This document shows, piece by piece, positions 1 through 11,492 of a DNA stretch of 64,000 bases. The notes beneath the pieces are model-generated. The model had not been told where the DNA came from, did no database searches, and saw only the letters and a program-made list of their open reading frames with translations. Both the position numbers and the translations under genes were made by a program. The stretch lies in NCBI GenBank assembly GCA_963771175.1, contig CAVYSY010000026.1, positions 192,001 through 256,000 on the forward strand, read 5' to 3'. Within the stretch, counting starts at the first letter, position 1, and each line of letters begins with the position of its first letter. Source of the stretch: an uncultured delta proteobacterium (lineage in GTDB: Bacteria; Myxococcota; Myxococcia; Myxococcales; Myxococcaceae).

Positions 1-106
1 GCCCTGGGCCTGTGAGCACCCTGAGCTGAAGTAGGGCTGAGGAGATTCATTCCCCCGGCCAGTAGAGGCCCACCACTGGGTGCTCAGCTCAAAACGGGGC
101 CATGCG

Positions 107-361
107 CGTCATCATCGGCAGGGCATCACGCCAGGATCTCGATTCCGACCAGGACTCCATCCTGGTCGAAGTCGAGCACCACATCGGGGCCCGTGTAGGA
201 ACCCAGGAGTTCGGCCAGCCTGATCGACTTCGACATCTTGCAGGTCTCACCGGGGTGACTCGGGAGGCGCAAATAGGCCACGTCCTGATCGTCCTCGGAG
301 ACTCGCAGCTCGAAGCGCCCGAGCGTCTTCTTTGAATCCGTCTGCCCCATTACGGCCTCCA
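107..361. repeat. Direct repeat A, copy 1 (copy 2 at 8900-9154)
   Basis: Near-identical sequence at constant offset 8793; covers DUF2283 and the last bases of toxin 1. Confidence 0.9.
126..350 (-). CDS. DUF2283-family protein, probable immunity protein of the upstream toxin
   Basis: DVAYLRL...VVLDFDQDGVLVGIEIL motif; ATG overlaps the toxin stop (TAATG) and follows a GGAGG RBS. Confidence 0.8.
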   Translation of the reverse strand: MGQTDSKKTLGRFELRVSEDDQDVAYLRLPSHPGETCKMSKSIRLAELLGSYTGPDVVLDFDQDGVLVGIEILA

Positions 362-1666
362 CTGCAAAACGGTCTTCAGCTTCAATACACCATCCCTGAG
401 CTGATAGACGACCGCACCACCTCGGCCAAAGCCAGGAACGATGACGCGGTCCGCGTGGGCCGTGTCCCGAATGGTTCCGGGCGGAAGCCCCGACTTCTCG
501 ATCTGTCGGCCGAACTCCTGCAAGGCCGCGCGAGCATCCTGCACGCTTGAGAAACCAGCCCGTTCAACCGCACGTTCCGCCGCGTGCGGCATGTTGCTGT
601 TGACCACCTTGTCAACGTGGATATCCGACGCGCCTCCTGTCAGCTCGCCCGTGACATGACCGTTGCCTCGGCCATCTCCGGCCGACATCGCGACCGCATT
701 GGGGGCAAGGGTGATGGTGACGGCCTCGGCACTCACGGCAACCGTCTCTATCTCCCCCACTGCCGCGAGGCGGAGGCCCACCTGCGTCTCCGCCTGCGCC
801 GCCGCCTGCATCGCACCGGGCAGCGTCGGCACCTTCGCCGCCAACCCCGTCGCCGTGTTGCCGAGCGCCACCGTGGCCAGCATGGCGAACGCACGCGCTG
901 CGTTGCGGCCCATGACCTTCCCGTACCGCTCCCCGGCCTCGCGCAGCTCATTGAACGTGGTGGCCCGATCCGCCGCGTCCATCAGCCGCTTGAAGCCCAC
1001 GACGAGGCCCCAGAAGGTGTCGACGCCCACGTAGGAGATGAGGGTAGCGGTCATCACCGCCGCGAGACCCTTCGAGACCGTCACGTCGGGAATCGAGATG
1101 AGGAGCATGTACGTGGTCCAGGTCCAGAGCACCGCCGCCACCATGGCGTGGGGGTCGGCCATGTCCTTGAACGCCTCCAGCATCTCGTCGAGCACGGCGC
1201 CCTTGGCGAGGGCCAGGGCCAGCGCGAAACGGCCGTCCCCGTTGACGATGGAGCTCTCCGTCAGCAGGCGGAGACAGTCTCCGGGCCTGCCGGTGCGCTC
1301 GCACCAGCGCAGATAGTCGCGCGTCAACTCCACCTCCGCCGCCGATGGTGCCCCCTCCAGATGTTCGTCCGGCCCGAGCGGAGTGACGCGGCGGCTGCGT
1401 GTCTCGTACGTGTACGAACCACTCCGCGCCTCGACCTCGAACAACTTCCGGGCGGCCTCCTGGGGCCGAGCGGAGGGCCGAACCTCCCAGGCACGCTTCG
1501 CCACGGCCTCCTTGAACTCGTCGCCGTTCAACCTCACCGGCTCGGCACCGGAGCGTGGGGTGAAAACGAGAGTGTCGGCCTGGCCCGTGTCCAGGCGCAC
1601 GACCCGAGAAGCGGTAGCACACCCGGCGAGGAGCACCAGCAGCGCCGCCGTCCAGCCCAGCTTCAT
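350..1666 (-). CDS. sitA5: SitA5-like lipoprotein polymorphic toxin, copy 1, with putative RNase C-terminal domain
   Basis: Lipobox LLAGC followed by SRVVRLDTG; YLRWC...GDCL motif; VAMSA junction; C-terminal HAAERAVER...LKTVL; small coupled gene downstream. Confidence 0.75.
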   Translation of the reverse strand: MKLGWTAALLVLLAGCATASRVVRLDTGQADTLVFTPRSGAEPVRLNGDEFKEAVAKRAWEVRPSARPQEAARKLFEVEARSGSYTYETRSRRVTPLGPDEHLEGAPSAAEVELTRDYLRWCERTGRPGDCLRLLTESSIVNGDGRFALALALAKGAVLDEMLEAFKDMADPHAMVAAVLWTWTTYMLLISIPDVTVSKGLAAVMTATLISYVGVDTFWGLVVGFKRLMDAADRATTFNELREAGERYGKVMGRNAARAFAMLATVALGNTATGLAAKVPTLPGAMQAAAQAETQVGLRLAAVGEIETVAVSAEAVTITLAPNAVAMSAGDGRGNGHVTGELTGGASDIHVDKVVNSNMPHAAERAVERAGFSSVQDARAALQEFGRQIEKSGLPPGTIRDTAHADRVIVPGFGRGGAVVYQLRDGVLKLKTVLQWRP

Positions 1667-2172
1667 GGGAATTCCCCCTGATGATGGCCACCCCCTGATG
1701 GGTAGCCAGTCCAACTGTGTACCCTATTGGTCTGACAACTCCCGGTGTTCGCCGCTCTCGGCGGCGTCATTCGAGGGGCTCATCAAGAGCGCCCGTGCTT
1801 CGGCATAAGGACCTTGGCGGTCATCCCCGCTGACGTCCTGGCTGGTCGGCCAGTGCGTCTTCATCCAATCCACCCGAGGAGGAATGCAGATGGAACACGT
1901 CAGCCTCTCCGCTGAGCTGGGGGAAATTCGTTACGCCATCGAGGGCGCCCACTGGATCGCGGACAGCGTCGCCATGGGCGCGGTGCCCGACCCGGATCGG
2001 GTGCACAGCGCGCCCGTCATCATCAGCGCCATCCTGCTGCTGGTGGAGACCAGGCTGCATCAGCTCGGCCGTGTGCTCCGAGGCGAGGAGAACCCGGCGC
2101 ACCTGTTGACGCCGCACAACGTCACCGCCGGGGAGAACGCGGACAGGGATGACGTGGTTCTGCGGCCTTGGG
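681..2172. repeat. Direct repeat B, copy 1 (copy 2 at ~9914-11405)
   Basis: Near-identical toxin N-terminus, intergenic region and divergent ORF at offset ~9233. Confidence 0.9.
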
Positions 2173-2238
2173 ACTGGAGCGCCGCGCCGAGGCCGTCTCC
2201 GTCCGAGAAGAAGGAGACCGAGCAGCCCCGTCCAGTAG
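1890..2238 (+). CDS. Hypothetical protein divergent from the toxin; 3' end uncertain
   Basis: GAGGAGG RBS; MEHVSLSAELGEIRY... is conserved in copy 2 at 11124; the frame stays open to 2756, but an out-of-frame TAG at 2236 followed by a hairpin suggests an earlier true end. Confidence 0.55.
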
Positions 2239-2385
2239 CGGGAACCGAGTCCCCCGTCCGTTGGAGGAGAGCCCTCCCGCCCAGCCCGGCACGCAGGGGG
2301 CGCAACCGCCCCCCACCGGGGAGCCGGGCTGATCGGCTGCGGCCTGTATCGTGCCTGGAGTACCAGGGGAAGGGAGGTGAAGACG

Positions 2386-2499
2386 ATGCTGGGTGCCGTG
2401 AAGAAGCTGGCCGCCTCACCAATCACCCTCCGGGTGGCAGCGGCCATTTTGATCGGACTGGCCGAGCACCTGCGCGAGGTGACGCGGCACGGGCGGTGA
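2386..2499 (+). CDS. 37-aa small hydrophobic peptide, candidate type I toxin
   Basis: Strong SD GGGAGGTGA; MLGAVKKLAASPITLRVAAAILIGLAEHLREVTRHGR; below the ORF-track length cut-off. Confidence 0.5.
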   Translation: MLGAVKKLAASPITLRVAAAILIGLAEHLREVTRHGR

Positions 2500-2519
2500 A
2501 GATGCCCGGAGTTGAAGCA

Positions 2520-2676
2520 CGGTCCCCGTCGCACCAACACCAGCGTGATGCTCCCGGTCTTGGCCGGGTGGTGTGGCGGGGGCCGGTTCGTCTCCACGGG
2601 CTCCGATCCCGGTGGCACCAGCTCCGGTGCAGTTCCACCGCCGGAGGTCCCCGGTCACTTCTCCCGGTGGTCCTCC
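2520..2676 (+). ncRNA. Putative structured RNA or structured 3' UTR
   Basis: 17-bp stem 2520-2536/2569-2585 with three G-U pairs; inner hairpin 2553-2568; hairpin 2622-2646. Confidence 0.45.
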
Positions 2677-2985
2677 AGATTTTTAAGTATCAGGGGCGCC
2701 CTACCCCCTCGTGCGCGAGGAGCTGGAGGGCGAACACTGGGTACGGCCATCAGTAACCCCTGGGCGAAGATCGCCAGGGACCGCGTACCGGGGAGCAGCC
2801 CGCTGGAGAGTCCCCCCGAAAAATCTTGAGAGCCCCCATCCCCCCAGGGGCGCGAAGAAGACCAGGGGGCTTACAGGTGGACCTGCGACAAGGGAACCCC
2901 AGTCCCCCCATCCCCGGGGGTGCTCACCCAGGTTGGATAGGGCTACCGATTAGCGAGTCAGGGCGAAGAGGGCCCGGGAGAGGCG

Positions 2986-3872
2986 TCAAAACGAACCCGA
3001 GGGCGTCACTTCACGAGCCGCAGGCGTCACGCGCAGCTCCTTGGCCTCGGCCGGGTTCTCGGCCTTCACGGTGGCCACCTGGGCGCGGAGCTGGTCGAGG
3101 AGCCCGAGCTGCCGCTGCATGGCGGTCTCCAGCAGCTTGCGGTGGCGCTCCAGCTTCCGCAGGTCCGCGTCTTCCAGCAGCAGCACCTCGGCGGCCAGCC
3201 GTTCGCGCACCGGCGCGAGCGCGCCCTCGTCCTCGGCCAGCTTCGCGGAGAGGGCGCCCTTCACACCTGGGCCGCGTTTCCCAGGTCTCGGTAGACGGCC
3301 GGGGGGATGCGCTCCGTCCTTGAGTTCTCCTGGGCATGTGTTGAGCGCGAAGGCCAGGGGCTCCACCACGACCATCGGCAGGCCCGGCACCTCGCGCAGC
3401 ACGGTCACGGTCTTCTCCACGCCGGTGAGGAAGGCGTCGGTCTGCTCCGCGTCCTTCGGCGGTGGGGAGGCATCCACGAACTCGACGAAGGCGCTCACCG
3501 CCAGCGCCCGGCGGGTGAGGTCGTAGGTCTTGAACTCGTCCGTCTTCTCCAGCTCCTCCTCCAGCCGGGCCCGGATCCGGCCGTTCTCCACCCGGCTCAG
3601 CCGCTCCAGCTTCCAGGCCGTGTCCGCGAGCTGCGCCACGATGGTGGCCTCGGGCAGGGTGGTGGGCGAAGCTGGAGAACCACGAGTCCACGTGCGCCTC
3701 GTACTCGGCGGCATCCTCTCCGGGAAGGAGCAGATGCGTGGCGCTCAACCCGTGGCGGAGGGAATTGAGCGAGGATGTAACCTTCCCCTCGGGGGTCTTC
3801 GGGCCGTTCGAGCGGGCCCCATTGAGCGCGCTGGTGAGCGGCCTGTCGGGCGGAGCGGACGGAGGGGTTCAT
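2986..3872 (-). pseudogene. MGE-associated protein with GPKTPEGK...NSLRHGL motif, frameshifted
   Basis: Joining frames gives ARSNGPKTPEGKVTSSLNSLRHGLSATHLLLPGEDAAEY...EATIVAQLADTAWKLERL. Confidence 0.55.
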
Positions 3873-4072
3873 ACGGGAATTCTCCGGTCTGGCTCGCACA
3901 CTCGTGGGAAGAGGAACGTATAGCCTCAGACGCGGATGGCCCCATGACGGTGCTACTGCACCAATGAGGAAGGCGAGCGAGGGCTGGGCTCCCTGCTCGT
4001 CACTTCCATTGGGCACAGAGAGCCAATCCGACGCCTCTTCGGATTAAGGGTCGAGGGGTCTATCCGGCTCTT

Positions 4073-4493
4073 TGTATGTTGTAAATCCAGGGTCTCTTCT
4101 GGAGCGAGGCCAGGACTAGTTCTTCAAGGGCTTCGTTCCGAAGAACTCCTGGTATCTTGTAGTTTCTGCTCCCTCTCCGAAATCGAGAGAAAGGACCTTC
4201 AGTCCTTTCTCTCTTTCTCTATTCTCCTTATATGATGCAATTACAAGATATAAAGAGATTGAAGAATGAATGAACGAGGACTTGGAATAGAGTCCTCGTT
4301 CTTGGACGAAAGAGAGTAGGGGAATTACAAGATACAATGGCTGCTTGAACCCCTCGCCCTTGAATCCACCGAGGCATTTGGAGGGGTGAAGAAGGCACCT
4401 GGATTACAACATTCAAGATGTTCCCGGAGAGGCGCCCTTGATCTCCACCAAGACCTCGCCGGAAGAAGAAGACGCCCGGAATTACAAGATGCA
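4073..4493. repeat. Array of six 16-bp repeats (consensus GGAATTACAAGATACA), candidate replication origin
   Basis: Copies start at 4073(-), 4151(-), 4237(+), 4321(+), 4400(+), 4478(+); spacings 78/86/84/79/78; AT-rich centre at the orientation switch. Confidence 0.75.
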
Positions 4494-4504
4494 AAGAGTC
4501 CGAG

Positions 4505-5552
4505 TTAGCTGGTGCGTACGGGCTTCTTGTTCCTGAGTTGGAGCCCATAGGCGTCCCTAGCCGCGTCCTCCTCGGTGTACCGACCCGTATCCGGCACCCA
4601 CCTCAACTTGTAAGTGGCTGCCCTCGTGCCAGCCGAGTGGCCCTCGTACAGCTCGAAGACGTGGGAGCCGAAGAATTTCCGTAAGAACTCTGGAGTGCCC
4701 GGAGGCTCCAAGGATGGCCTCTTCGTTCGTTCCGGCGCCGCGCAGCCAATCCGATCTCCACCGAACCAAGTAGCCCTGGGCCTGAGCATTCCATTGCATG
4801 TAGGCGGCCATTCGTTGGAGGCACCTGAAGAGATAGAAGGCGACTATGGGGCCATGCGTCTGGCTTACCCGATGGACCCACTCCATGCTGCTGGGCCCCA
4901 TCTTGGCGAATAGAACTTCGGGATGCTCGTTGAGTAGGTTATTCCTGAAGCCGGCGAGCTGTCCCCTGAGCCCTCGAAGGGTATTACCATCCGTGACGCC
5001 GCTCGCTTGAGCCCATACCTGGAGGAAACTGAAATAATCAGGCACTCCATCTTCGGGGTGGTACTCGACCGCCTTACGTAGCCTCTCGCTTCGCATCAGC
5101 ACCCCGGCCGAGAGATAGAACGGCTTTCCTTTCGGCCATGGAGGACTCCCCAGATGACGAGGGTATCCTCTTCGTTGATACTCGGAGGGGTGGCCCCCTC
5201 GGCAGCTTCGACCAGGTTCGTTCGGAGCTTGTAGAGCGGGGTGCCCCTGCATGGATGCCGAGTGGCTGGGCCATCAACCAGTTCCACTCCGCGTCACCCA
5301 CCTGTCGAGTGAGCCCGAACCGGGTGATGACGCCTCCTGCCAGTACGTGGAGGGGGCGTAGCGACAGGCCAGCACCGAGCTCCTGCACGCTCATCACTCC
5401 TTGGAGCCTTAGGTCCACGTCACCCAGGAACGGAAAGACGTCCAGCACGCTCCCGGTGGGGAGCGGAGTCCTGGGAGGCAGTCACGCTGGTAGTAGGGGA
5501 TTTTCTTGCGTCGGCTGACGCTGGGGATGTCGCATGTCTGTACGTCGCTCAT
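4505..5552 (-). pseudogene. Candidate replication/initiator protein, frameshifted
   Basis: Four overlapping ORF segments from MSDVQT...; C-terminal EGHSAGTRAATYKL resembles a wHTH wing; ends directly beside the repeat array. Confidence 0.4.
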
Positions 5553-5744
5553 GGCTCTGCTCCTTCTTGTGCACGCTGCAACGGGAGCTGGTGGCCCTGC
5601 CCGTGCACTTCTCAATGAATCAACCCGGCGAGCAGGACAGGCACTAATCCAAGGTTGCTCTGCCGTGGACCGTCCTGCCTGACGGGCCCTCGGTAGTGGG
5701 GTCCAGCGGGCCGTCCTAGTGTTTCCCTGTTGAGGAGATGAGCG

Positions 5745-6448
5745 ATGGCGAAGCTCACGGATGAATCGACCATGGAGTCCCTGCCACCAGCCGGGAGCCT
5801 GGAGCCTCCGGGAGGGGAGCCCGGGACGGGCAGCGAGCGTCCCAAACCCCTTCCCCCCATTCCCCTCGGGTACTCGTGCGCGCCACCGCCACCGCCGCTT
5901 CCGGAGTACCTCCGTCCTCCGCTTCCCGTGAGGCGGGGGCGTCCCGATGGATGGGTGTGCAGACGATGCACGGAGTGGTGGGAGTGGCACCCGTACCGGC
6001 CTCCGACAGAGCAGGAACTCGACACGCCCTGCGTTGAATGCCGCAAGGCGATGGAGCCCGAGGAGCGCGCGGTGGAGGTGAACCGGCACCTGCTGGCGAG
6101 GCTCAGCGCGGGATTGGGCTGCCTGGCCCTGCCGACGCCCACTATGTCTCCGGTCCCAGGCCGGCGGCAGCGCACAGACCAGCTGCCGAGCTGTTGTCGA
6201 AGAAGTCGGCTGCGCGTCTCCTGGGCGTGGACCGGGCAACGACCTTGGAGGAGTGGATTGCCACTGGCCGTATCAAGGTGGTGGACCTCGACGGCCGAGT
6301 CCGCATCCCACTGGCGGAGGTCGAGCGCATCTTGAACGAGGGCATCCCGGCTCAAGAGGTGCGCTCCAAGCCCCATCGCTCAGCGAGAGCGGCTGCGTCT
6401 GTGCCATCCGAATCTCCAGGGAATGCGATTCGAAAGTTGAAGGTCTAG
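5745..6448 (+). CDS. Excisionase-like HTH protein with an N-terminal CxxC..CxxC region (frameshift ~6177)
   Basis: LLSKKSAARLLGVDRATTLEEWIATGRIKVVDLDGRVRIPLAEVER is HTH_17-like; CRRC and CVEC lie upstream. Confidence 0.65.
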
Positions 6449-6497
6449 AGTGAGTTATACGCGATCTTCTGGCTACTATCGGTCGATGGGGAGGCTA

Positions 6498-7442
6498 ATG
6501 AGTTCCGACATGAAGGCGGTCTCAATTATTCAGAACGCTCTACCAGGGCTGGAGATTGAACTTCAGCGGGTGCACGAAGCACTACACGAGGTGGAAGAGT
6601 ACGAGTTCAACCGCATTCACGGGAGAGAGCTCGGTCTCATCCAGAAGAAGACTTGGCTAGAGAGATCTTCACGTCCAGAATGAAAAGGCTCTCGCGGCTT
6701 GTGCTCATATGCCTTGATGCTGCTGGCATGGTGGCGACGCGCGATGACTTCCGGGAAACATGGGCCAAATTCACCCTAACGGAAACCGAGTACGTCCACG
6801 AACTCGATGTGCTGCATAGCGAGCCATCCATCTACCTGGGAGACATGATTGACGGCCTACGCCTCATCGCAACTAGAGGCGAAAGCCCAACCGAAAAGGT
6901 GGATCTTCAGCGACTTCAGGATATGCTGCAAGCAACGCCCACGCTAATGCACAGGAGGAATATCGTTCCCCAGCGGGAGCACGACATCCAGTTGGTTATG
7001 GCTGATTATCTGGAGGCATGTTTCCCACGAGAGTTCGTGCCCTCTCCAGGTGTCCCCGGCTTCATCAAGAACTTCAAAGCCGATGCCGGGGATACGGCAT
7101 CTCAAAGCAGCGGTGGAATTCAAGTTCGCCTCTACTCCCACCGAATTGAAGCAAGCAGTATCTGGAATCTTCGAGGACACAGCGGGGTACAAGGGATCCC
7201 TCGATTGGACCCGCTTCTACTCGGTTATTTATATGACTGAACCGTTCGAGTCGCCTGCTCGCTTCCACGCGGATATGAGCCGAGCGGGGGCTCTGAACTG
7301 GACCGTGATCCCGGTTAGTGGAGCGGGCGAAAAGCAGCGGAGGTTCCGGAAAGGGAAGGGTAAGGTAGAGCCAGTCGAGCCGAAGAAGGCCGAGCCAGTC
7401 GAGCAGAAGAAGGCCGAGCCAAGCGAGCCGAAGAAGGAGTAA
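6498..7442 (+). CDS. PD-(D/E)XK nuclease, DpnII/MboI-like REase domain (frameshifts ~6660 and ~7095)
   Basis: EHDIQLVMADYLEACF...FKADAGIRHLKAAVEFK...ED pattern; lower GC; C-terminal 24-bp tandem repeats (EPVEPKKA). Confidence 0.6.
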
Positions 7443-7557
7443 CTCACCGCTGTTAGGAAGCCGGTCATGGGCAAATTACGGGCAACCACCTCTCCCGTTT
7501 TCGACGGTTCCAACCCCCTCTCCAGGGGAGGAGTGGCGGTGCCCCCGGCCTTTTCAC

Positions 7558-7602
7558 GACTGTTAATCACTAGGTCCGAGGTTCGAGTCCTCGTCGGGGA
7601 GC
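7558..7602 (+). mobile_element. att site: 3' half of tRNA-Asn(GTT)
   Basis: Anticodon loop CTGTTAA, perfect T-arm CGAGG-TTCGAGT-CCTCG and acceptor 3' strand; no D-arm or 5' acceptor strand. Confidence 0.85.
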
Positions 7603-7604
7603 AC

Positions 7605-7644
7605 AAGAAGGGCGTCAGACGAAAGTCTGGCGCCCTTTTCTTTT
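7605..7644 (+). terminator. Intrinsic terminator after the tRNA fragment
   Basis: AAGGGCGTCAGAC-GAAA-GTCTGGCGCCCTT followed by TTCTTTT. Confidence 0.8.
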
Positions 7645-7689
7645 GCCCTCTCTGCCCCATCGGCACAACACGGGCAACCCCCTTCGAGC

Positions 7690-8308
7690 GCGGTCCTCAA
7701 GCGCGTCTACTCCTGGTTGCGCAAGGTGAAGCACGTCCTCTCGGTGGCCGAGGACCCGACCTTCGAGCGGCTCACCGTGCCCCAGGCCCGGCCCGAGCAG
7801 TGGAAGCGGACCAAGGTGATTCCCCGGGAGCACTACCTGCTCGCCCGCGAGCACCTCGCGCCTCACTGGCGCGACGGGATGGACGTGCAAGCGGGCACCG
7901 GCTGGCACGTCTCGGGAGCTGGTGCGCTTCGCCAGGATGGGCAGCGTGGAGCCATACCGGGGCGAGGCCGAGGGGATCGCGGGCGTGCTGGTGTGTCCGC
8001 AGACCAAGAGCGGCGAGCCCTTGCGCACTGCCGTGTCCGCCGAGGTGCAGGAGGCCGGGAAGCGGCTGCTGGAGCGCGGCTCGTTCAGCTTCGAGAAGTA
8101 CGGTCTGGCCATCAAGGGAGCCTGCAACGCGGCGGGCATCCCGGCCTTCACGCCGGGACGGTTCCGGCACTCCGTCGCCACCTGGGCCATCGAGAAGGGA
8201 GCGGACCCGGCTTCCGTGGCGGCCTTCCTCAACCACAAGAGCCCGACCACCACGCGGCGCTTCTATGCGACGCACGCTGTCCCGGTGAAGATCCCCACCC
8301 TGGCATAG
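7690..8308 (+). pseudogene. Tyrosine recombinase/integrase, N-terminally truncated, one frameshift ~7915
   Basis: GTGWHVSEL, TK, GRFRHSVATW, LNH and RRFY motifs; no start codon or N-terminal domain. Confidence 0.75.
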
Positions 8309-8503
8309 GACACCGAGAGCGACGGTTTCCTAACCCTTGAAGGGCCCCTCGGTCCTCGGGTGGAGCCGGGTAAACCCCCGAGATTACTGGACGCTGGCGT
8401 TCATCCACGTTCACCCGCGACCGACCGATTACGTACAGATTACGTACTGGTCGAACCGATTCCGGGACTTTCGTCCCGAGTCGTGGCAACCCAGGTTTCA
8501 GGG

Positions 8504-8839
8504 ATGAGTTCCAACAACAGCACGGTCAGTCCAGAACTCCAGCACTACATGCGCTGCACTGCATGTAAGCGGCGCGTAAGCGAGCACGCTCCTGGTAAGT
8601 GCCTCTACCAGGAAACGGCTCTCGCTCCGTTGACACACAACAATTTTTGTTGCGACACCTTCAAGTCCATTGATTCAGAACTGAGCGCTGATCTGCTTGG
8701 TCGGAAGGAAGACGAGCAGCTCTACGTCAAGCGTCACAATGAACTCGTCGCACTGTGCCCGCATCCACCAAATCGAGTGAGCACGGGCGAATACGGCCTG
8801 GAGTTCTGTACCTGCTGTAACTCCGTCATCGAGAGCTAG
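8504..8839 (+). CDS. Small Cys/His-rich hypothetical protein
   Basis: CTAC...H...C, CC, CPH and CTCC; lower GC. Confidence 0.5.
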   Translation: MSSNNSTVSPELQHYMRCTACKRRVSEHAPGKCLYQETALAPLTHNNFCCDTFKSIDSELSADLLGRKEDEQLYVKRHNELVALCPHPPNRVSTGEYGLEFCTCCNSVIES

Positions 8840-8918
8840 ACGGGCTCGATGAACGAGAAGCTGCAACGCACTCCAAGGGAGGCGGCTCGGGCTGCTCGCC
8901 GTCATCGTCGGCAGGGCA

Positions 8919-9143
8919 TCACGCCAGGATCTCGATTCCGACCAGGACTCCATCCTGGTCGAAGTCGAGCACCACATCGGGACCCGTGTACGAGCCCATG
9001 AGTTCGGCCAGCTTGATCGACTTCGACATCTTGCAGGTCTCTCCGGGGTGACTCGGGAGGCGCAAATAGGCGACGTCCTGATCGTCCTCAGAGACTTGCA
9101 GCTCGAAGCGCCCGAGCTTCTTCTTGGAATCCGCCTGCCCCAT
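8919..9143 (-). CDS. DUF2283-family protein, copy 2 (probable orphan immunity)
   Basis: Near-identical to 126-350. Confidence 0.8.
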   Translation of the reverse strand: MGQADSKKKLGRFELQVSEDDQDVAYLRLPSHPGETCKMSKSIKLAELMGSYTGPDVVLDFDQDGVLVGIEILA

Positions 9144-9163
9144 TACGGCCTCCAGGCCATGAA

Positions 9164-9598
9164 CTACGGCGTTTCCCCCAGCTCACGGAGCTTGCCGCGT
9201 GCAATCTCGTTCAGCGGCTCCTTCTGGAGGATGCGACGGTAGAGCCGCACTTTCTCGGCCGGCTCACGTGCCAGCGCCGCCTCCAAGGTGAGAACCTGCA
9301 CGTGCTCCGGGTCCAACGCCTGGGCCATGCCGAGCTGCCGACTCGCTTCGCCGTCTTCTCCCATGAGGAAATAGATGAATCCGAATTCAACCCGTGCGAG
9401 CACATCCTTGGGCATCAGCTCCAAGAGTCGTTCATAGGTGGGCACCGATACCTCGGGCTCAGCGTAGAACTTTCCTGCAAGCACCGGGAGTACAGCGGGA
9501 TCGGAAACGTGACGGAGCGCATCGCGGAAGGCCCGCTCTGCCTCTGCTCCTCCTGTCTCCAGCACTCGCTTCGCCAGATATTCGAAATGGTCCGTCAT
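9164..9598 (-). CDS. TPR-like protein, probable cognate immunity protein of toxin copy 2
   Basis: ATGA overlap with the toxin stop; helical TPR-like repeats (ARVEFGFIYF...ALDP). Confidence 0.65.
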   Translation of the reverse strand: MTDHFEYLAKRVLETGGAEAERAFRDALRHVSDPAVLPVLAGKFYAEPEVSVPTYERLLELMPKDVLARVEFGFIYFLMGEDGEASRQLGMAQALDPEHVQVLTLEAALAREPAEKVRLYRRILQKEPLNEIARGKLRELGETP

Positions 9599-10900
9599 GG
9601 GGGAATGAAAGCGGTGTTGATGGTGATTCGACCGTCCGTGTACTTGAACCAGCGAATGGTCAGGTTCGCAATCCCCCCGAACCTATCATTGATCTTGAGG
9701 GTGCTCTCGAAGATGGACCCTTTGGGGGTTGTGGCCAATGCGCTCACCTTCCCATCGAGCTGGCGGACAGCGTCGATGAGGAACTGTCGTTGCTCTGGCC
9801 ACGTTGGAGCCAGGCGGTCCAGGTTGTGCTTGGGAACGTCTACGTGCGCATCTTTGACCGAGATGTCATCACCGCTCGCCGGGAGCGGAGCGCTCGTGGC
9901 ACCCGACCCCTGAGCCGACATCGCCACGGCGCCCGGAGTAAGTGCGATGGTGACGGCCTCGGCACTCACGGCAACCGTCTCGACCTCCCCCACTGCCGCG
10001 AGGCGGAGGCCCACCTGCGTCTCCGCCTGCGCCGCCGCCTGCATCGCACCGGGCAGCGTCGGCACCTTCGCCGCTAATCCCGTCGCCGTGTTGCCGAGCA
10101 CCACCGTGGCCAGCATGGCGAACGCACGCGCTGCGTTGCGCCCCATGACCTTCCCGTACCGCTCCCCGGCCCCGCGCAGCTCGTTGAACGTGGCGGCCCG
10201 ATCCACCTCGTCCATCAGCCGCTTGAAGCCCACGACGAGGCCCCAGAAGGTGTCGACGCCCACGTAGGAGATGAGGGTGGCGGTCATCACCGCCGCGAGA
10301 CCCTTCGAGACCGTCACGTCGGGAATCGGAGATGAGGAGCATGTACGTGGTCCAGGTCCAGAGAACCGCCGCCACCATGGCGTGGGGGTCGGCCATGTCC
10401 TTGAACGCCTCCAGCATCTCGTCGAGCACGGCGCCCTTGGCAAGGGCCAGGGCCAGGGCGAAACGGCCGTCCCCGTTGACGATGGGGCTCTCCGTCAGCA
10501 GGCGGAGACAGTCTCCGGGCCTGCCGGTGCGCTCGCACCAGCGCAGATAGTCGCGCGTCAACTCCACCTCCGCCGCCGGTGGTGCCCCCTCCAGATGTTC
10601 GTCCGGCCCGAGCGGAGTGACGCGGCGGCTGTGTGTCTCGTACGTGTACGAACCACTCCGCGCCTCGACCTCGAACAACTTCCGGGCGGCCTCCTGGGGC
10701 CGAGCGGAGGGCCGAATCTCCCAGGCACGCTTCGCCACGGCCTCCTTGAACTCGTCGCCGTTCAACTTCACCGGCTCGGCACCGGAGCGTGGGGTGAAAA
10801 CGAGAGTGTCGGCCTGGCCCGTGTCCAGGCGCACGACCCGAGAAGCGGTAGCACACCCGGCGAGGAGCACCAGCAGCGCCGCCGTCCAGCCCAGCTTCAT
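9595..10900 (-). CDS. sitA5: SitA5-like lipoprotein polymorphic toxin, copy 2 (extra base ~10328), with a different C-terminal toxin
   Basis: N-terminus near-identical to copy 1; after VAMSA reads ...AHVDVPKHNL...ITINTAFIPP. Confidence 0.75.
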
Positions 10901-11123
10901 GGGAATTCCCCCTGATGATGGCCACTCCCTGATTGGTAGCCATTCCAACTGTGTACCCTATTGGTCTGACAACGCCCGGTGTCCGCCGCTCTCGGCGGCG
11001 TCAATCGAGGGGCTCATCAAGAGCGCCCGTGCTTCGGCATAAGGACCTTGGCGGTCATCCCCGCTGACGTCCTGGCTGGTTGGCCAGTTCGTCTTCATCC
11101 AACCCACCCGAGGAGGAATCCAG

Positions 11124-11492
11124 ATGGAACACGTCAGCCTCTCCGCCGAGTTGGGGGAGATTCGTTATGCCATCGAGGGCGCCCACTGGATCGCGGACAG
11201 CGTCGCCATGGGCGCGGTGCCCGACCCGGAGCGGACGCACAGCGCGCCCGTCATCATCAGCGCCATCCTGCTGCTGGTGGAGACCAGGCTGCATCAACTC
11301 GGCCGTGTACTTCGAGGCGAGGAGAATCCGGGGCACTTGTTGACGCCGCACAACGCCACCACCCAGGAGGAGGCGGACAAGGATGACGTGGTTCTGCGGG
11401 CCTGGGTCCAGGTCACTTCGGTGCGAGCACCTTCGCGCGGTTCGCCGCGCTCATCGCGTTTGGCCACCCTGCGTAGAACGCGAGGTGCGTGA
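11124..11492 (+). CDS. Hypothetical protein, copy 2; homology ends ~11405 (truncated at the island edge)
   Basis: Near-identical to the ORF at 1890. Confidence 0.55.
   Translation: MEHVSLSAELGEIRYAIEGAHWIADSVAMGAVPDPERTHSAPVIISAILLLVETRLHQLGRVLRGEENPGHLLTPHNATTQEEADKDDVVLRAWVQVTSVRAPSRGSPRSSRLATLRRTRGA

Follow-up and report, generated by a model that had tools for sequence, protein, structure and literature searches.

What kind of mobile DNA lies at the start of a 64,000-nucleotide stretch from an uncultured delta proteobacterium of the Myxococcaceae (assembly GCA_963771175.1, contig CAVYSY010000026.1, forward-strand positions 192,001 to 256,000; hereafter the window), and is it one of the known phage satellites? 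A reading made from the sequence alone had proposed a satellite-like integrative element of ~7.5 kb with a contact-dependent lipoprotein toxin cassette. We find that the element is one of a family of small integrative elements in Myxococcaceae, a real one and apparently not described before, and that this family is defined by one gene, called GPKT here, and not by the toxin or by the winged-helix (wH) protein and its repeat array. The overall explanation that we favour, by a modest balance of the evidence, is that the element integrates site-specifically and belongs to a Myxococcaceae family whose anatomy resembles that of phage-inducible chromosomal islands (PICIs). Conclusions on the family rest on intact relatives, not on the frame-broken copy in the window.

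Borders of the element and the GPKT-marked family

Measured from one attachment (att) site to the other, the element is 10,234 bp long, with its left border at window position -2676 and its right end at the att repeat (Table 1). The borders first proposed, 107..7683, therefore do not hold: an intact tRNA-Asn gene, a full integrase, two small genes and an XRE gene precede them, so that the element spans 10.2 kb, not 7.5 kb, and position 107 is where a repeat shared with a second, decayed unit at 7604-11406 starts. The tRNA-Asn att fragment was correctly recognized as such; it is the 3' half of the gene in a perfect repeat. Both items to be looked for upstream, the intact tRNA-Asn and a full integrase, were found 2.7 kb before the window, and no prophage lies there. 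The tyrosine integrase is complete (phrog_1, E 2e-15), the proteins coded upstream also include a phrog_8 match (E 3e-11), and both att cores are flanked by arm-type repeats. Two program calls at the right end were rejected: an ARAGORN tRNA-Glu at 7520-7602 is the attR half-gene, and an Rfam ctRNA match at 7606-7646, under its gathering score, is the terminator.

The terminator after attR is of the type found behind tRNA-Asn where relatives lack this insertion, and a stripped older unit comes next, which indicates that integration took place ahead of a unit already resident. The older unit holds the native-type terminator, an arm site, the C-terminal half of an integrase (94% identical), an XRE remnant, an orphan DUF2283 gene, a TPR immunity gene, a SitA5 copy with another C-terminus and a truncated c1; no GPKT, array or xis occurs in 7604-11492. 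The tRNA-Asn gene and this integrase, whole or broken, directly adjoin in 13 of 17 same-genus genomes, and the site is an integration hotspot in this genus. By the names of its homologues the source belongs to the Myxococcaceae, probably to Archangium. Stacked, stripped units with an integrase fragment and remnants of c1, SitA5 and DUF2283 genes were seen there (loci L188-L197), with second att cores in L189, L193 and L194.

A GPKT profile matched 45 of 208 Myxococcaceae genomes, in 16 of 51 genera, a few of these matches being to the N-terminal part only; the source genome has a single GPKT locus. A tRNA was called in 35 of the 49 loci examined. Seventeen loci, this element included, are enclosed by tRNA repeats of 25-51 bp and measure 7.6-21.5 kb (median 10.4 kb); many of the remaining loci end at contig ends or at the 20-kb region limit. 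The att-bounded loci occupy seven tRNA types (tRNA-Pro, Met, Asp, Phe, Glu, Gly and Asn), and in all 16 others GPKT lies inside the att pair. Their common order is integrase (three clusters), xis, a variable slot, GPKT, cargo and c1/peptide, with GPKT the sole gene besides int and xis that all members keep. Head, tail and lysis PHROG families were absent from the 75 proteins scanned, which comprise 62 of 78 cluster representatives (transposase, kinase and some short open reading frames (ORFs) left out) and 13 slot, GPKT and wH proteins. Likewise, no capsid, tail or conjugation gene was seen in the element itself, as had been reported.

Conservation of the gene order, proposed earlier as a check, was borne out: xis-ORF-array-GPKT is kept in six further loci of four genera. 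In another genus, tRNA-Asn is the site of a twin (L062/L101) whose integrase, SitA5 and c1 are 93-97% identical to those here; it differs in its slot module and carries TIR/RNase H cargo. Cultured carriers of int-xis-wH-GPKT-SitA5 are Pyxidicoccus fallax DSM 14698 (L135) and Corallococcus sp. RDP092CA (L142); a tRNA-Phe member resides in the cultured strain Archangium gephyra PVMSAZ (L146). That the backbone was not recognized as a described family agrees with our literature searches, which found no published description, with thin coverage of subscription papers and with the proviso that the main sitAI surveys may describe such contexts; the accessible part of a 2026 myxophage preprint describes no such elements.

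Table 1. Features of the element and its surroundings (window positions unless marked as contig positions; aa, amino acids; HTH, helix-turn-helix)
Feature	Position	Strand	Remarks
Region upstream of window	contig 189295-192000		tRNA-Asn(GTT) with attL, arm repeats, 374-aa tyrosine integrase, two small ORFs
Intact tRNA-Asn(GTT) with attL	contig 189295-189368		2.7 kb upstream of window
XRE-type HTH gene, 3' end	1..29	+	rest upstream of window
DUF2283 protein, putative SitI immunity	126..362	-	PF10049 E 1e-9; overlaps toxin stop
SitA5 lipoprotein toxin	350..1666	-	438 aa, intact; NF050093 370 bits
Conserved ~147-aa gene (cluster c1)	1890..2332	+	divergent from sitA5; apparent frame break near 3' end
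37-aa amphipathic peptide	2386..2499	+	Shine-Dalgarno sequence; after c1
GPKT gene, family hallmark	3006..3872	-	290 aa in relatives; 5 frame breaks here
Promoter-like motif	3873..3910	-	TTCCCAC-N17-GA[C/G]AAT (N19 here); 5-7 nt before GPKT start codon
Convergent repeat array	4073..4493	strandless	motifs 78-86 bp apart facing central near-palindrome 4231-4252
wH protein gene	4505..5552	-	helical, C-terminal winged helix; 346 aa in nearest relative; 7 frame breaks here
Excisionase-like gene (xis)	5745..6448	+	Cys-motif N-part plus HTH_17; PF12728 E 2e-7, phrog_66; 2 frame breaks
Cargo nuclease, PD-(D/E)XK REase-like	6498..7442	+	homologues match PF18742; 2 frame breaks
Arm-type integrase site GGGCAA..CGGGCAA	7466..7491	+	similar copies at -2551, -2494, 7670
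attR	7558..7603	+	46 bp, 100% repeat of tRNA-Asn 3' half
Older decayed unit	7604..11492		next to attR

The exchangeable slot and the GPKT gene

The slot between xis and GPKT has been swapped repeatedly across the family. Elsewhere it holds PolB (PF03175), PolA (PF00476), a D5 primase-helicase (PF08706), Prim-Pol-AAA (PF09250), DUF3854 (PF12965), primase/helicase PHROGs, a 512-aa protein without assignment or an HNH nuclease; in other loci, as here, it holds the wH ORF. The last is a real gene, as intact homologues of 346-355 aa in relatives show, and the iteron-like array beside it, also noticed at the outset, is convergent: a TGTAATTACA-type palindrome stands at its centre in AT-rich DNA, hairpins lie in the spacers, and the motifs are conserved while the spacers diverge.

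Array and wH gene occur together. Within the 1.3 kb before GPKT, 5-7 motifs were counted in six of the seven loci with a wH gene, and 0-2 in the 40 loci with other modules; the seventh, with an inverted gene, has a compact three-motif array at the gene's 3' end. These seven loci, from which the motif was derived, represent about five independent lineages. Outside this sample, a 32%-identical wH homologue in another family (L121) has behind it both a convergent array of five motifs and a GPKT homologue, and at a second homologue (L120) the palindrome lies beyond an insertion sequence. On the GPKT tree (43 rows, with 4 of the 47 loci left out for a short or broken GPKT, and the window represented by a 112-aa piece), starred branches force at least five changes of the wH module. 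Because the array accompanies the wH gene only and recurs beside a distant homologue, and the module changes repeatedly on the tree, we conclude that wH protein and array move as one cassette. Their linkage strongly suggests that the wH protein binds the array, and the array may with moderate confidence be taken for a replication origin.

The wH protein had 56 matches, one of them spurious-looking, among 1.84 billion representatives, no noteworthy Pfam match in 42 members and no confirmed relative in scans of viral and metagenome contigs. In its predicted model (pLDDT 92.7) the C-terminal ~110 residues match winged helices weakly (best Z 5.5, root-mean-square deviation 2.6, 74 aligned), and the remainder gave no clear fold match. 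Assignments as KilA-N or a known Rep were rejected, as searches returned no match to either. Two other slot modules were observed: a 760-aa organellar/viral-type family B polymerase (L023:12811-15096, L060:11917-14238, L074:11683-13968), whose carriers are possibly pipolin-like self-replicating variants, and the 512-aa protein (L038, L062:1359-2897, L063), which in L038-type sequence is followed by different direct repeats (CTTTCCCCGA x3), a candidate second Rep/iteron pair.

GPKT, the GPKTPEGK gene of the sequence-only reading, encodes a protein predicted to be all-helical with a central four-helix bundle (model pTM 0.54, N-part of low confidence). Its matches in PDB are generic four-helix bundles (Z up to 11.4), and those in the ESM Atlas are unnamed clusters alone. 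Homologues of the first ~100 residues occur in Acidobacteria, Planctomycetes and other groups, one of them on a Planctomyces plasmid near parA/repA. A promoter-like motif precedes the gene in most loci where the 5' end is intact, regardless of the module upstream; it is a probable leaderless promoter. A sigma-70 scan found no promoter. We also considered GPKT as a small terminase (TerS), given an 'NA..HG' motif that we take to resemble small terminases and an HNH gene directly upstream in 15 members. This idea was dropped: no search bore it out, including those of phage records and IMG/VR. By its position and universality, GPKT is the best candidate for a mobilization function.

Cargo and condition of this copy

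The toxin and the putative immunity gene proposed at first are present: the SitA5 score far exceeds the NF050093 cut-off of 160 bits, a lipobox (LAGC) is there, and the overlapping DUF2283 gene putatively confers immunity, a pairing that recurs in L024, L039 and L062. The C-terminal ~95 aa, for which Pfam gave no match, are unlike those of the copy at 9595-10900. Two near-identical SitA5 escorts thus carry different C-termini (8919-10900 versus 126-1666; compare L024:12902-18765), and the second unit keeps the DUF2283 gene of the first as an orphan behind its TPR immunity gene, a signature of C-terminal swapping. That the element spreads kin-discrimination toxins proved half right: SitA5 is aboard, but the claim was overstated, since a SitA5-like gene lies near only 8 of 47 GPKT loci (inside 2 of the 16 other att-bounded elements) and 18 of the 19 SitA5 matches over cut-off in the source genome lie outside this element. 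A third close SitA5 (83% identical) stands at C40:421249-422483, beside an ARAGORN tRNA-SeC call. SitA5 is thus an exchangeable, minority cargo of a known toxin family, and novelty is limited to the vehicle. SitA toxins are TraAB-delivered lipoproteins of six families, often on mobile DNA, according to the accessible parts of PMC8546572, PMC5562445 and PMC10047993, and in PMC5562445 they are proposed to make sure that mobile DNA is transmitted and retained. TraA was found in five of five relatives and not in the source assembly, which is 81.7% complete.

The other small genes mostly stand as first described. The nuclease and the divergent excisionase-like gene are confirmed by family matches. 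Nuclease homologues, present in 4 of 207 genomes, match PF18742 REase and weakly Aga_Helical-REase; the gene was not found among other fetched members of the family, and PADLOC gave no match for the window's own nuclease pieces. Three 24-bp tandem repeats (7362-7437) encode its low-complexity tail (PVEPKKAE). Among 67 loci that overlap in part, the 37-aa peptide is conserved at 28 separate places (48-100% identity). A structured RNA near it fared less well, with z = -1.96 (3/100 shuffles as good) and -1.74 (10/200) and no Rfam family reaching its gathering score. The c1 gene is present in 29 of 47 GPKT loci and has no Pfam, PHROG or NCBIfam match; with the peptide it forms a conserved two-gene module, perhaps toxin-antitoxin-like, at one locus only in the source genome. 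Cargo on the far side of GPKT includes a DUF932 gene in 14 loci and a Ser/Thr kinase with an adjacent ~280-aa gene in nine; L041:5821-6798, L053, L067 and L068 are examples of these two kinds. Other members also carry defence-type genes: RNase H with TIR (PDC-S35, L062:8665-9928), a GNAT-type pair (L029:14009-14858) and PDC-M30A (L025:11051-12172).

Integrase and toxin of this copy are free of breaks. Across 3.4 kb of the remaining core genes there are 16 single-base frame breaks (11 extra bases, 5 missing) and no nonsense codon; those placed by comparison with distant references are less certain. Frame-splitting is common in the assembly (11 of 31 orthologues, at least 16 breaks in ~40 kb), so that apparent pseudogenes of this genome need caution. 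A contig of sequencing run X1 covers 3692-6020 and differs from it by 52 letters and 28 gaps. Bacterial decay is deletion-biased, and the excess of insertions therefore argues for read errors. We lean slightly towards assembly errors as the source of the breaks, with real decay not far behind.

Mode of life, rival explanations and known systems

For an element of PICI-like anatomy the following course can be proposed. Int and Xis would very probably excise a ~10-kb circle. The wH protein would probably bind the convergent array, as a dimer on the central palindrome with further copies on half sites spaced by ~80 bp, and initiate replication with host enzymes. Transfer might use a helper phage, with GPKT as hijacking or packaging factor, a step on which we stay just short of an even bet. 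SitA5 passed on by TraAB outer-membrane exchange would kill siblings lacking or losing the element; from established SitA biology, it would thus work as addiction or kin-discrimination cargo. No attP joint of the element occurred in four sequencing runs, and none of eight whole-contig loci showed the terminal overlap of a circle. A joint 11650->1458 in runs X1/X2 was rejected as an excised circle; it agrees with a relative's attL, where the integrase comes after the native-type terminator, as in L177, L179 and L182.

Several results weigh against this explanation. GPKT or wH genes occur in none of 14 relatives' regions at the same tRNA-Asn site, helper large terminase (TerL) and capsid families were not found in the (incomplete) source genome, and members have no AlpA/Stl-type switch or capsid-size gene in common. 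GPKT has no terminase match in PHROG, Pfam, NCBIfam, BFVD or PDB, and wH matched no known initiator by family or by fold, RepA (1hkq, Z 3.7) ranking among many generic winged helices. Fifteen members hold an HNH nuclease alone in the slot, with no recognizable replicase; the slot is thus not always a replication module. The break density in the core genes is ~10x the assembly background, and this copy may be dead.

Could the array instead be an operator, partition or packaging site of wH, in the same element but with no autonomous replication? The best wH fold matches, winged helices of CRP/Fur/GntR type, would suit such a role, as would the HNH-only members and a spacing of 80 bp, far wider than in classic iterons. 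We nevertheless consider it unlikely, as the slot is positionally equivalent to PolB/PolA/primase modules, an AT-rich core and a rep-then-array order are typical of origins, and two distant homologues (P0019, P0026) have an N-terminal Cys/His extension that by eye resembles a primase zinc finger, with no family match. Spread without phage, as an integrative mobilizable element relying on a conjugative helper, vesicles, natural uptake or cell contact, seems rather improbable: neither relaxase nor coupling protein was matched among the proteins scanned, and the narrow size range suggests a packaging limit, even though profile scans identified no phage-hijacking gene, GPKT is absent from phage collections and its N-part has the plasmid homologue mentioned above. 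Finally, these units might be what is left of ordinary prophages whose late genes were lost, kept for toxin or defence cargo. Integrases, xis, HNH and polymerases are indeed phage-type genes, and stripped int-plus-cargo remnants dominate the tRNA-Asn site; yet perfect att pairs surround compact units of the same order at seven tRNA types with three integrase clusters, no unit retains a structural gene remnant, and the cross-genus twin is 93-97% identical, which makes this origin very improbable.

A wider version of the satellite explanation we put forward only tentatively: these may be the first phage-satellite family of myxobacteria, with GPKT a new packaging or hijacking protein, plug-in replication modules, wH a new initiator on a wide-spaced convergent origin, and some members spreading SitA5 identity barcodes between genera. 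The accessible literature places sitAI loci on mobile DNA, where they split populations into kin groups, and the large Mx-alpha prophage is the vehicle it describes so far. Present in about a fifth of Myxococcaceae genomes, cultured strains included, this compact att-bounded family is a second sitAI vehicle testable by polymerase chain reaction. Two unassigned protein families also become assayable, a possible new initiator/origin pair and a possible new helper-hijacking factor. Myxobacteria have very few replicons (PMC11705834, accessible part); were the array an origin, it would provide a much-needed replicon for Myxococcota.

The accessible part of PMC10085698 gives median sizes of 9.5-10 kb for PICI and P4 satellites, lists their core components and does not mention myxobacteria. 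With PICIs the element shares ~10 kb bounded by att direct repeats, an integrase, an excisionase/regulator, cargo, a replication slot with a conserved late-position gene after it, and the lack of tail, holin and structural genes. In contrast, the AlpA/MerR/Stl-pri-rep order is missing here, TerS and capsid-morphogenesis genes were undetectable (no PHROG head match in the 75 proteins or this element, aside from xis, which cross-matches phrog_57 weakly through its HTH), the slot is far more variable, and the hallmark GPKT is of no known family. For regulation there are the HTH_17 xis-like gene and an XRE gene, the latter without counterpart in most members, and no AlpA match; no primase-replicase was matched in this copy, and in other members one sits in the same slot. 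P4-like satellites share tRNA integration, ~10 kb and defence cargo, but Psu, Delta, Sid, Ash and the alpha primase-helicase had no Pfam or PHROG match in the element's proteins. The repeats of the P4 origin ori1, like those of the array, lie in both orientations. With neither capsid-morphogenesis nor P4 genes, and no TerS match, we file the element as neither PICI nor P4-type. The satellite-like label given at first thus holds for att repeats, integrase, size and lack of structural genes and fails for the PICI capsid and P4 hallmarks; by analogy, the element would work like a PICI/P4-type satellite in size and anatomy.

Pipolins and marine virion-encapsidated integrative mobile elements, as portrayed in the accessible parts of PMC9618062 and PMC11551731, are likewise tRNA-integrated, with PolB in some members or mixed replication strategies and with HNH/TerS genes; in the GPKT family PolB is one of several slot modules, and this copy has no polymerase. 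Nor is the element Mx-alpha (PMC6070905, PMC12390754, accessible parts), which is ~80-100 kb and makes particles (PMC6070905, PMC5562445, accessible parts) and carries sitBAI1-3 in M. xanthus, whereas the element has ~10 kb, SitA5 and no sitB. Both are myxobacterial mobile DNA stabilized by SitA toxin-immunity genes and found in tandem units, and the toxin itself shares with the SitA5 polymorphic family its NF050093 membership, a modular C-terminus and a putative immunity gene downstream.

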